Shown in pieces: positions 39,201-45,200 of a stretch of DNA of 63,987 nt. The notes below the pieces were generated by a model, which did not search any database, had not been told where the DNA came from, and saw nothing but the letters and a program-made list of their open reading frames with translations. A program made the position numbers and the translations under genes. The DNA is from Aplysia californica (Eukaryota), in contig NW_004797297.1 of NCBI RefSeq assembly GCF_000002075.1, positions 243,753 through 307,739 on the forward strand, written 5' to 3'. Numbering within the stretch: position 1 is the first letter of the stretch; the number at the start of each line of letters is the position of its first letter.

Positions 39201-42200
39201 TTTTGTCAAGAGAAAAGTTCCAGCGCCTTAACATTCCAGAATTGTAACAGCAAGATGCAATGACCATTGTACAAATGATGTAGAAAGATATTTTCCCTCT
39301 GATATCTCCCAGCTTTGGTAATCACTTCCGTTATTAAGAAAAACTCCCATGAGACTTTAGCCCAAAAAAAGAAAAATATGAGTGGAAAAAGCAAAAACAT
39401 TTTTCAGCAGCGATATTGCAGCAGCTTATGAAAGACATTATGTCAGGCTGTCAGTGCATACCCAGTGAAGGTGTCCTTTTTACTGGAAAGTGAAAACAAG
39501 GAAATTGGACATTCATGATTGCAACACCGTACAAAACCTAATTCTCTCTATAGGAGTGTCATCAACTCTATCAATAAGCAAATCATCGTCAAGAAAAATT
39601 AACGTACAAGGCAATTGACACACCACACCCTTGCAACTTACTGCAGCCTGGTAACAGCTCACATAAAAGCGTGCACATGCATATTTAATGCTATTTTCGT
39701 CCACCTTTCATTTTTGACAAACATAACTGAAAAGTTAAGGTCTGAATCTGCTAGAAAAGCTTTCCAAGGAAAAGTCATATCCTTTCACTGTCATTAACTG
39801 TTTTTATGAGTACACTTTTGTAAGAATGTTCAAATTTATCTTTCATCATCATTGACTTACGACTGCCATATTAGCCAAACTAAAAAAGTAAAAAAGACAA
39901 AAACAAAGTACAACAAAGTTTGATACACAATTTTCAAAAATAAGTTTGATTATAAAACAAATTCCATAAGTAAAAACGTTCCTTTCAAAATGTATTTTAC
40001 AGAAAGAAGTCAAGCAGAGAATGATTGAAATTGATAAAAATAGAGCAAAATTGAAGTGGGGCATGCGAAGAACAGAAGGTATTGGTAGATCAAATAGAAA
40101 ACTGTTGACACCATAAATCATTTTGATTGTGTAAACAGGTAACATTGATCCCTGTCAAAGTGAATATATGAACAAGTCTGGCAGAAATCCTGCGATGACG
40201 TGTAAGAATGTATGAAGCAACACAAAATACGCACACCTTTGTATATTGTTGAGTTCACCGACCAACATAAACACATCAAGACCCCACAGCCACACTCCTC
40301 TATTCGAACATTCTAACACACAGAAGTCTACACAGGGCACAGCGCAGTTACACACACAGAAGTCTACACAGGGCACAGCGCAGTTACAGCACATGGAAGC
40401 GCTTCATGCATGCCGATTACGCAAGTGTGCACACCCACACACAGCCCACCAACTGGGATACACAAACAGCGCGACAGACCACATTCAACAAAATACAGTG
40501 CATCTTGTCAAAGAGCAGAAGACTACAGAAACAAGACGAAGCGCAAATACCTTGGGACCATGTAAAAGCTGAACCAGGGAGGGAGGGGAGAAAATGGAAA
40601 ATGGGATTTGTCAGAATTAAGAAGAAAAATATATTTAACTGTTTAAGACTTAAAATAAAGAAGTACATAGACATTACAACAGTCAATAAGTTTCAGCAAA
40701 AAATAAATAAAAAGACAGACAGACAGATAGAAGGAACAGAGAAATAGTTGAGAAATTGGATCTACTGAAGGTATCCTCAATCTACCCTCACATATCAAGC
40801 TGTGTAAATGAACACACTGAGTACCGATGCTTCAGGGCCAGTTGATCCGAATGAGTGTCTACACAATGCTGAGATTTTTACCCCAGAAGTAACAATGACA
40901 TACAGTGAGTCATCCCAATCGTGGCAAAACTTTTTGCAGTGAAGCAGATTACAACAATAGCAACACTGAAATAAGGCAAATAGGGGAAGTTCATAACTGA
41001 ATCCCCCCCCCCCCCCCCCCCCCCCACAAAAAAAAAAGATTAATAACATAGCAGCAGGATATCCAGCAGGGTTCTGTAGGAGGGTATAAGACACATCAAC
41101 AACAGGACACCTTCTTCCTCTCCATTCTTTCATGATAAACTTTAGGTTCGAGCCTATTTCTTTCATAGAGGTTTTCAATCACTAGTTCATTCGCAGCACC
41201 CATTTCAACCTATCTATGAAAGTTCGGAGACCACAATAAAGAATGTATATAATTTTAACCATATCTAAATTACATTATGAAATAGTCATATTTGAAAAAG
41301 ATTAGTACTCAATACTGAATTTGAGTGAAACTGTAGAACGTGAAGGTTGTCAGGTAAGATGTAACACAGAAACTGCGGTGTACTCCCTCAGGAAGCCGGG
41401 TCTTAATCCTAAAGCTGTACCCAGCCAGCTAGAAGACACACAACTCAACACAACCTACACGCAGTAGTGGACACTGCTCCTACATGAGCAAGATGTCAGA
41501 GACTCTACCATATCGCCATCCATGCTCTACTTGTTCAGTTTAGGTTTAGTGAAAGTTTTAGAGCACTTGCAGCACAAATAGGTCATATAAGAGCCAAACA
41601 TGAAAGGTGTTACTAGAGAGTAACATACCGGGTACAAAGAAAAAAAGGGGGAGAGAGATAAGGAATAGATGTTTGATAAGAAAGAAGGAGCAAACCACAC
41701 CAGAACACCCCCAACTACTCACTTTCTGCTCATCTCGGCTTAGTATTCAGACATTTTCATAGAAAACACATCTACGTGCCTATCAGCAAGACATCACCAG
41801 CAATGGTCAACGACCAACTAAGAACATTAGACTTTCTTCTGAGGTAAAGAACAGCAAGTCGGCACAACAAAGCCCACATACCAAGAGCATATTTAGGCAA
41901 TAGTAAAACTGGAAAGAAGTGGAAGGAGGAACAGACTACACCAGAGTGGCTATAAACAACATCTTGAGAGAGAGAGAGAGAAAGAGAGAAGCATAACAAA
42001 ACAGTTATGTCATCTAGTGCAGGGACAAAAATAACAGATAGAGAAAAGGTTGGACCTACCAAAGCCTCCCGCCAGCCACCCGTTTAAACCAACAAAACCC
42101 TTACTCATGCCGCTTCCTGCAACATATACCACAGCTTTGACAGAATTCTCGCAGGATAGACCAATCCTCTAAACATTATCCCACCACACTACACCAAAGA

Positions 42201-45200
42201 CACACTTGCTGCAAACGTGATTTTTTTTTTTTGTCAGTCAAGTGATTTTCAAAACACTTCAACGAAGACATAAAACGTTTTTGAAAAATCCAAAGAACAT
42301 ACAACTTTACAACAGACATCAAGAAAAAAAGGTTATGACAAGCCACACAATCAAGCATTGTAACATTAGTTCCAGAACATTCCTTTCTGATACCCCATCC
42401 ACTCCTGCATACATTATCTCATCTCAACATCCCAGCCTTGATAACACTTTACTCTGAAACAGGGAAGAGCTGATAAAGCTTCCACCTTCTACAACATTGC
42501 GTAGGGTAGAAAAGTTTGAACTCAAGGATTTCTGGGTAAACAAAACAAATCTAATCCCATTTCCATACACTGTATAAAATCTGGAAACATTCTATAAAAC
42601 TTGGTTATGAGAAACCTCACAAAGTTAAGATCATCATAGCATCTATCATAGAGAGATACCATGCTGAATGGAGCATGCTTCATGCAGTTATGTACAGACT
42701 AGAGACATGAGTTAATGGAGAGAAATAGAGCACACAGTGTCGTAGGCATCACAACAATTGTAAGAATTTGAGACAATGAGGAATGTTAGTCATCTTTGCA
42801 TCACAGAATCATAAGATAAATATTTACTGCAAAAAGACTCTTAAACACTTAAGAACGGAATCCATTTATTTCAATTACTAACGCGGCATGAAGCCTAAAG
42901 TCTCGCACTATTATTGCTCATCAACAAGACATTGATGTCAACACAAGGAAAAATTTGGCGTGAATCCTGTCATTCTGAACTCTGTGAAAGAAATTGTCGT
43001 AACACTGAATGATGATGTGGGGGGAAGAAAGGAGACAAACGTCTATGCCTCATTATTCAATTCAATCCCTGACCTGGGCCCTGTAAATTCCATGACACAG
43101 AAGACACACAAATGTTAGTAAGTGAAAGCAAAACAACAATTAAACAGGAAAAAAAAAAATTGAAATTGAGTAAATGTTTTTGACAAGTTGGTTATGTATG
43201 AACACATGGATATGAAGCAGGAACTACAGGTTGATCATGGCAATGAGACCAGTACTGAACAGGAAATTTTTAAGCGGGTAATAGACGCTTCTTAACAATG
43301 CAAGGCTCCCTTTGAAAACCTCGAAAATTTAGTTTAAATCAAGGAACTCGCGGCATACAAATTAATAGTTACTGAAAATTTCTTTTTTCAAAACTAAAAC
43401 ATTAGACCTAAAACATATACTAAGTTATGACTTTTTAATGAGGTGCTTTATCATTTCTCAGAAGAAAGTTCATGCCACAGTATGTCCAAGATATAGGAAG
43501 AATGATCAACCTGCCAGAAGAATGAGACGCAATTCAAACGATGGCCTGTGACTCAGCACTTAGGGTGCAGGAAAGTGAAAGTACCACAGATTACATCTCA
43601 TTGCAAGAGCAGTCCTTGTTAGAGAGGCCAGATGTCAGCTCGGACAACTTCTGCCCACAGTCACGATAACTCTTGTCTTTGAGCCCCATACGGGACAGTG
43701 CAATTGAAACCAAACATTCTTAACACTCACTGACCAAACCGCTTTATCTACATAACTGGCAAAAATGAGCCCCCTACCATCCCCTCACTCCTTTTTTTCC
43801 CATACCTCTTTTCATAGCAATCCGATATTTCTGTGCTAAAAAATCCTCAGTTTCGGTAGAGATTACCCCATCCACCCCCCTTTTTTTTCTCTTCCACTTT
43901 CCATAACAACCCAACAATATTTCTTTGTTAAAAATTCCTCAGGTCTTGGTGAAGATCCCTTTTACTTATACAGTTGTAAGAAGTCTAGTCATTTTGCAGT
44001 TCCCAGACAAAAATTCCAATTTTTCAGTGAGCAGCCAATTAAACTTGGAAAGTCACGAGTTTCCATAACTTTCAAACTTCACCAGCAGATAAGGTAATCT
44101 AGCCTACCACACTCATCTCTAAACATGACACTGTGGGCAAAGGACTGAGCTGACATCTCTAGATGAGTGAGTGAAATGTGATAACAATGAGGGACTGGGC
44201 TGGGAGAAGGGAGAGGGGAGGGGAGGAGGCTGAAGGGAGGGAGGCCCAACCTGCCGCTAGGTTTAGAGTTGAGAGATGTGTTTGAGCTATACATGGAATC
44301 CACGTGGGAAGGGGCGAGGCTGAAACAAGAAACAGAGGGACCCTATGTCAGGCTTACTGCTGTCTGCTTCCTCTCTCTATCNNNNNNNNNNNNNNNNNNN
44401 NNNNNNNNNNNNNNNNNNNNNNNNNNNNNNNNNNNNNNNNNNNNNNNNNNNNNNNNNNNNNNNNNNNNNNNNNNNNNNNNNNNNNNNNNNNNNNNNNNNN
44501 NNNNNNNNNNNNNNNNNNNNNNNNNNNNNNNNNNNNNNNNNNNNNNNNNNNNNNNNNNNNNNNNNNNNNNNNNNNNNNNNNNNNNNNNNNNNNNNNNNNN
44601 NNNNNNNNNNNNNNNNNNNATTAAACATTCACATCAAACACTTCCAAGTACAAATGATATACCCACGTACAAACAAAAACATCAAAACATACCCACACAC
44701 ACTAAAAAAATCACACACCATTTGAAAATGTCAACTTTCAAAACAATGACAAAATCTCATAAACTGGGCTGAAAAAAAACCAAGAAACGAAAGTTGCTTA
44801 CTCTTCCATTATACAAACCATTTGTTATATTCAAATGTTCTGAGGTTCAATAAGTAAACTGGAATCGGAGTCAAATTTTTTTTAAACTTCAAACAAAACA
44901 ATCAAACAGTCCAGACAAAAAAGTAGTATAAACAGTTATCCATTCCATGCACATTTGTCTTTTAACATCCCGCATAAAACCCATATCATATTTTTTAAAA
45001 CTTGAAGCCAGACTTGAAATGTGATGAACATCTGCTGCATCTGAAGTGCGACAGAAATTTCTTGCTAAGGCCTCGTGGTTTCCCACCATATGAAAAGATC
45101 CTAAACAACCCTATACAACTTTTTAAAGTCCTTTGACTAAGAAAATGACAGGACGATTTTTTTCACATTACTAGGAAATGAAAATATAAACTGTTGCTCA

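Follow-up and report, generated by a model that had tools for sequence, protein, structure and literature searches.

Intron 8 of a PPP1R16-like gene of Aplysia californica probably carries one conserved cassette exon; a five-part neural microexon cluster is not supported

Which parts, if any, of the long intron 8 in a PPP1R16 (MYPT3/TIMAP)-like gene of Aplysia californica are ever spliced into its message? The gene lies on the minus strand of a 63,987-nucleotide (nt) stretch of contig NW_004797297.1, referred to here as the window and used for all coordinates, and the question is raised by a sequence-only reading of the window which described five small units flanked by AG and GT in this intron as a combinatorial cluster of neural microexons. 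The analysis supports one conserved cassette in an exon hot spot and does not support the five-part neural cluster. The 69-nt unit can be described, from comparison with homologs, as a conserved in-frame cassette placed in a predicted disordered, phospho-regulated linker, within an intron that keeps gaining small exons, and two of the four smaller units remain fair candidates. The features on which the argument turns are the following.

35535..60536, minus strand: PPP1R16-like gene, 10 constitutive coding exons, product of 650 amino acids (aa) with a CaaX end
47219..47339, minus strand: exon 8, 121 nt with a phase-2 end, encoding a basic linker and the helix that follows the final ankyrin repeat; covered by the spliced contig of RNA run X5
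36799..47218, minus strand: intron 8, 10,420 nt, phase 2, longest of the nine introns; removed in a single step in the X5 contig
36681..36798, minus strand: exon 9, 118 nt, starting with RRSS, whose second serine is S366 of the 650-aa form
44251..44319, minus strand: 69-nt cassette exon 'B', 15/17 pyrimidines, branch-like CTGAC at -32, weak donor CAG/GTTGGG (4/7)
42105..42116, minus strand: 12-nt unit, UGC at -5, 8/17 pyrimidines, AG-free zone of 16 nt, no branch-like motif
40551..40568, minus strand: 18-nt candidate microexon, 15/17 pyrimidines, AG-free zone of 68 nt, donor AAG/GTATTT
39642..39647, minus strand: 6-nt unit, good donor GTAAGT, TGCATG at -34, 10/17 pyrimidines
39462..39482, minus strand: 21-nt candidate microexon, 15/17 pyrimidines, AG-free zone of 53 nt, weak donor TGG/GTATGC

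As descriptions of the letters, the statements of the sequence-only reading hold. All five units have AG and GT at these positions, are multiples of three in length and free of stops, and included together they give an open reading of 692 aa with the translation originally proposed. Intron 8 is the longest coding intron and is phase 2, the three pyrimidine tracts called excellent belong to the 69-, 18- and 21-nt units, and a TGCATG precedes the 6-nt unit by 34 nt. The splice-site scores given here are simple consensus counts in place of a trained splice model, and 238 undetermined letters (N) at 44382-44619 inside the intron lie outside all unit searches.

The case for the 69-nt unit comes from other molluscs. 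Intron 8 contains 726 in-frame, stop-free AG..GT units of 3-150 nt, and among these the 69-nt unit is the best match to molluscan cassette peptides, with a mean score of 47 as against 22 for the best non-overlapping unit, a score of 83 to the Biomphalaria cassette and a shuffle P of 0.0005. It adds 23 aa, 39% of them serine or threonine, around the core motif Y-S-S-N-[S/T]-S-L, and its peptide ends in KPSG like the Biomphalaria cassette; since the unit ends on the same residues, the weak donor is confirmed. The exon 8-exon 9 junction is spanned by 101 of 137 examined proteins, and 42 of the 101 carry the core motif or a close variant, although these records are redundant and not independent. 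Database isoform pairs, mostly predicted RefSeq models, record forms with and without the cassette in 17 named mollusc species: among gastropods Biomphalaria glabrata, Physella acuta, Pomacea, Babylonia, Littorina, four Haliotis species and Gigantopelta, and otherwise Mizuhopecten, Pecten, Ostrea, Saccostrea, Magallana, Mya and Octopus bimaculoides. The insert measures 21-31 aa in molluscs, its core motif is common to pulmonates, caenogastropods, abalones and bivalves, and Octopus isoforms X1 and X2 differ by a 23-aa cassette-like insert (P = 0.009). On these alignments the unit appears to be an old cassette conserved across gastropods, bivalves and octopus, and that it is a real cassette exon is close to certain. 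The peptide is present or absent in isoform pairs of 17 molluscs and the cassette is thus already annotated in relatives, whose RefSeq isoforms carry both the 69-nt counterpart and microexons of 15-18 nt at the junction, so the expectation that standard annotation would miss it failed. Within the unit, an internal AG at 44286 would give an in-frame 36-nt shorter cassette keeping the donor and an internal GT a 27-nt version; nothing points to use of either.

RNA from Aplysia californica shows the skipped form. Eight runs of unstated tissue were aligned, in which contigs drop rare forms, and six of them have near-zero exon cover: the raw PolyA runs X22-X24 have hardly any depth, and X2, X7 and X8 have zero depth on exons 8 and 9, with spliced contigs either unplaced at likeness 96 or filtered. 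In a single contig of X5, exon 8 is spliced straight onto exon 9 (36798-47219, CT..AC, depth 26.5) and exon 9 onto exon 10. Contigs of X15 run unspliced through 39071-39946, which includes the 21-nt unit, and through 43881-44352, which includes the 69-nt unit. No joint into any of the five units occurs in the contigs of the eight runs, which with six near-blank runs does not establish absence. A further X15 contig (46723-47340) stops matching the window at the 5' edge of exon 8, beyond which it has 202 unlike letters, and as 202 letters equals exons 6 and 7 summed, this suggests a transcript from which the upstream introns are gone and in which intron 8 is retained. Together with the X15 contigs that tile most of the intron, it suggests that intron 8 is removed slowly. 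The aligned contigs hold no variants inside the five units, where only about 0.4 would be expected. Inclusion of the 69-nt exon in Aplysia californica itself we infer from the sequence comparisons.

What inclusion might do depends on the host protein, which the sequence-only reading had called PPP1R16. Four sequence features place it in the PPP1R16 (MYPT3/TIMAP) subfamily: an RVRF, that is an RVxF PP1-docking motif, in exon 1 ahead of the ankyrin repeats and shared by homologs; Pfam Ank families scoring above cut-off on exon 3; a C-terminal CCVIL, which would fit a CaaX prenylation box; and a PKA-type RRxS site after the ankyrin repeats, RRSS in the window protein aligning with RRVS (S352) in shrew MYPT3 and RRAS in skate TIMAP. 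The closest named relatives are heterobranch PPP1R16A-like proteins (Elysia, Lymnaea; 72% over exon 1), and the gene is single copy in the genome assembly by a search with exon 9 only. The biochemistry of PP1c binding, prenylation and phospho-regulation of PPP1R16 proteins is known from vertebrates only (PMC6737228, PMC3560227). Phosphorylation of MYPT3 at S340/S341/S353 and of TIMAP at S333/S337 raises PP1 activity (PMC6737228), TIMAP being phosphorylated by PKA at S337 and by GSK3 at S333 (PMC6737228, PMC3560227). When the protein is aligned with those of shrew (MYPT3) and skate (TIMAP), the units fall between the ankyrin repeats and the PKA-type site, as had been claimed, with the insertion point between S339/S340 of shrew MYPT3 and its RRxS serine S352; window S366 aligns with this S352, which is S353 of the paper, an offset of one. 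Exon 1 also carries, ahead of the RVxF motif, a poly-glutamine run (CAG/CAA repeat, 60330-60375) that is missing from 15 aligned homologs, and intron 7 (49006-47340, minus strand) has a non-canonical GC-AG donor, TTG/GCAAGT, across which reading through matches homologs.

The cassette is predicted to land in a disordered linker. In the AlphaFold model of a Physella isoform (mean predicted local distance difference test, pLDDT, of 65.7; 15 sequences) pLDDT is under 50 over residues 339-384, which span the cassette, between helices at 314-334 and 386-398. Inclusion would thus add a 23-residue serine-rich spacer to this linker directly before the likely PKA site. The weak donor may keep inclusion low, with tissue factors raising it. 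The insert would remove an R-x-x-S motif that is formed across the exon 8-exon 9 junction, and may supply serines spaced i+3/i+4 for relay phosphorylation of the primed CK1/GSK3 type; serines three and four apart are the pattern for primed CK1 and GSK3 relays. Altered phosphorylation could in turn change PP1c activity at the membrane, so that a longer linker would tune the phospho-switch at the level of splicing. The preferred reading, which we regard as probable, is therefore a single conserved cassette in intron 8 that is skipped in the X5 contig, is likely to be included in some tissues and would there retune the phospho-relief of PP1 inhibition. Several points weigh against it. The isoform pairs of relatives are mostly computer predictions; the cassette is missing from Argopecten (0/6 cluster members) and from single Elysia, Lymnaea and Bulinus records; no contig or read carries the 69-nt exon spliced in, the sole contig over it (X15, 43881-44352) being unspliced; and a literature search found no phosphosite, kinase or PP1 assay for any mollusc protein. 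The linker effect is disputed even in vertebrates, because phosphomimics of TIMAP S333/S337 left the PP1c active site unfreed in cells (PMC6737228).

The four smaller units have to be judged against the number of such units that arise by chance. In-frame YAG..GTR units of 3-30 nt number 85 in intron 8 as compared to 60 expected from a control of 371 kilobases (kb) of neighbouring genome on both strands, and at ordinary score thresholds the intron 8 counts equal those of dinucleotide shuffles (8 vs 6.6, 5 vs 5.9 and 2 vs 1.9). By the genome control, an intron of this kind should hold 10.7 units as good as the 12-nt one, where 25 are seen, and 3.2 as good as the 6-nt one, where six are seen. As a set, the five units are no more than chance. 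Chance most probably accounts for the 12- and 6-nt units; both are of background grade and each is very unlikely to be a real exon. The 6-nt unit also has a further AG within about 10 nt upstream, which leaves it an AG-free zone of 8 nt, and UGC at -28/-34.

Only at tight post-hoc thresholds do the 18- and 21-nt units stand out above the chance level. A tight class defined by 15/17 pyrimidines or more, 40 nt or more free of AG and a donor scoring 3/7 or better, thresholds fixed afterwards at the observed values, contains these two units in intron 8, as compared to 0.14-0.19 expected from the genome control and 0.04-0.14 from Markov models of the intron, and none in the gene's other eight introns (11.8 kb). 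The 18-nt unit is the best of the small units, with branch-like motifs at -52/-46 and a TGCATG 141 nt downstream, and its reality is a tentative proposition; the 21-nt unit is slightly more doubtful. The alternative that survives best builds on them: that the 69-nt exon and one or both of these units are real, the latter being the lineage's own microexons downstream of the cassette as in abalones, scallops and Mya, is a serious possibility with somewhat less than an even chance. It draws on the tight-class counts, on the presence at the junction in other molluscs of further cassettes, a second and a third, of 5-17 aa, and on TGCATG, presumably the Rbfox motif, which occurs seven times in intron 8 and not at all in the other eight introns. 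Against this, looser thresholds for the 18- and 21-nt class give P = 0.04-0.14, with 0.40 expected and one seen in the shuffle comparison, and the seven TGCATG compare with 4.1 expected from the genome control, so the count is suggestive only as a regulatory sign. The X15 contig is unspliced across the 21-nt unit, and all 15 heterobranch records lack any junction insert other than the B cassette. Peptides of the 12-, 18-, 6- and 21-nt units find no match among 134 homolog proteins; the 18- and 21-nt units may be the lineage's own additions. A metagenome scan for a relative's intron gave one weak 1.5-kb locus among 363 candidate stretches.

The junction itself has gained exons in several lineages. 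Caenogastropods have an extra 15-aa cassette upstream of the conserved one, oysters and scallops have extra microexon-sized inserts of 5-6 aa (15-18 nt) upstream, and downstream there are extra cassettes of 17 aa in abalones, 11 aa in scallops and 14 aa in Mya. All four combinations of two cassettes are recorded in Pomacea, Babylonia, Haliotis rubra, H. rufescens, Ostrea, Saccostrea and Mya, and seven of the eight combinations of three cassettes in Pecten. Since relatives record such combinations, the idea of combinatorial, frame-preserving optional exons is true for the family, and this part of the sequence-only reading stands; what does not is that all five units of the window are such exons. 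Counterparts of the upstream (A) or downstream (C) molluscan cassettes were sought in intron 8 with no match, the best mean scores being 16-17. Outside molluscs, Priapulus isoforms X1 and X2 differ by a 17-aa serine-rich insert with weak likeness to the cassette (P = 0.014), and inserts at the same junction in Macrostomum and Lineus show no likeness to the molluscan cassette (P about 0.6). The linker is predicted to be unstructured, therefore phase-2 exons of a multiple of three would be tolerated, and lineages keep adding small cassettes. It is conceivable, though we would not expect it, that the phase-2 intron before the PPP1R16 PKA site is a protostome-wide exon hot spot, in which an ancient serine-rich cassette (gastropods, bivalves, octopus, possibly priapulids) and lineage-specific additions, some of them true microexons (in oysters and scallops of 15-18 nt, in the window the 18- and 21-nt units), are combined in a tissue-specific manner and rebuild the phospho-switch of a membrane-bound PP1 holoenzyme, one which vertebrates leave unspliced. 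Recurrent gain of small exons within one ancestral gene is described for other genes (PMC8797185, 10.64898/2026.09.05.749416).

Far less probable is the proposal of one combinatorial cluster made up of all five units, specific to neurons and controlled by an eMIC-domain Srrm protein through UGC motifs. The five units do keep the frame jointly, and the regulator that the proposal called for has a counterpart, as the genome encodes SRRM_C (PF15230), which we take to be the eMIC domain, over two exons (positions 1-55 at 28.3 bits, over cut-off, and 56-67 at 17.4 bits, under cut-off). These exons lie about 4.4 kb apart in an Srrm-type locus (L001 1501-1668 and L002 5496-5630; G000 C323, minus strand). 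What marks the targets of eMIC is a long AG-free zone together with UGC close to the acceptor, a strong tract and a branch point (10.1101/2021.02.24.432780). Among mammalian targets about three quarters contain UGC, which is not strictly needed for the SRRM4 response (10.1101/2024.09.17.613571). None of the five units has this full set: the 18- and 21-nt units have long AG-free zones and no UGC within 40 nt of the acceptor, and the 12- and 6-nt units, of which the first has UGC close by and the second both UGC and a strong donor, have weak tracts and short zones. Moreover, 11 in-frame units of intron 8 have UGC near the acceptor, and the choice of the UGC-bearing ones is therefore arbitrary. 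With 12- and 6-nt grade units expected in every such intron, no homologous peptides for the small units and no RNA support, the neural eMIC/UGC part of the earlier proposal is not supported. Microexons are defined as 3-27 nt (PMC13174390), a length that four of the five units have at 6-21 nt; the 69-nt unit, the sole validated one, is too long. That intron 8 contributes nothing to the message, the 69-nt unit being a relic and the direct exon 8-exon 9 form the only one made, is the least credible reading of all, for although the sole spliced contig skips everything, the donor is weak and some relatives have skipped records only, an exon no longer used, lying within 10 kb of intron, would decay, whereas here peptide, frame and both splice sites are kept and the core motif matches that of pulmonates, caenogastropods, abalones and bivalves.

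The remainder of intron 8 is poor in transposons, as the sequence-only reading had observed, with a single interspersed-repeat fragment at 41531-41727 by comparison with the other parts of the window and with 220 kb of this genome, and an Rfam scan of the intron gave no matches at E 0.5. The fragment belongs to a very abundant repeat, heavy in the RNA runs, with further copies near 13180, 15784, 59022 and 63337 by a translated look. Four short, near-perfect tandem duplications lie in the intron (37393-37441, 40316-40393, 46392-46449 and 46866-46907), the last being polymorphic with a 17-nt deletion in X15. Tail to tail with the PPP1R16 gene stands a D-amino-acid oxidase-like gene (about 4980-22500, plus strand; Pfam DAO on its first and last exons).

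Returning to the single conserved cassette, what is new is the synthesis and its mapping onto the phospho-switch; database models of relatives already contain the exon, and hidden microexons are not what was found. A literature search returned no paper on splicing of the PPP1R16 linker or on molluscan PPP1R16, and the supplements of 10.64898/2026.09.05.749416, which covers Octopus, may list the exon; in one supplementary file of PMC8797185, MYPT-75D, CG6896 and PPP1R16A have no matches and Ppp1r16b has one constitutive exon. MYPT3/TIMAP proteins keep PP1 at membranes under a switch operated by PKA and GSK3, and a cassette kept across molluscan classes beside this switch points to a second control at the level of splicing. 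The contrast between two isoforms offers a simple test in animals used for cyclic AMP/PKA signalling in neurons and muscle, and a single junction that has repeatedly gained small cassettes makes a clean case of an exon hot spot.

Among known systems, the closest are the isoform pairs of Biomphalaria glabrata (XP_013085816.2 X1 and XP_013085828.2 X2) and Physella acuta (XP_059176380.1 and XP_059176383.1), in which a serine-rich insert of 23-24 aa with the Y-S-S-N-[S/T]-S-L core is present in one isoform and absent from the other at the same junction as the window unit; unlike the five-unit proposal, these molluscan PPP1R16A-like pairs, which are predicted models, have no peptides resembling the 12-, 18-, 6- and 21-nt units. 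The eMIC/SRRM3/4 neural microexons resemble the window in that four of its units are 6-21 nt long and frame-preserving and the regulator domain is in the genome, but the validated exon of the window is 69 nt and its best small candidates lack UGC near the acceptor. Vertebrate MYPT3 (PPP1R16A) and TIMAP (PPP1R16B) share with the window protein the RVxF motif, the ankyrin repeats, a serine cluster after these followed by RRxS, and the CaaX end, whereas in four vertebrate records (two shrews, two skates) the junction is free of inserts. Their upstream RRTSS cluster (MYPT3 S340/341, TIMAP S333/337) is not found letter for letter in molluscs, where the cassette may supply serine sites in its place. 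In the leucine-zipper exon of MYPT1 (PPP1R12A), splicing likewise alters kinase control of a PP1 targeting subunit, a 31-nt exon removing the PKG-binding zipper (PMC5087845). That exon acts by a C-terminal frame shift in another gene and region, whereas the window exon would act as an in-frame insert in the linker.

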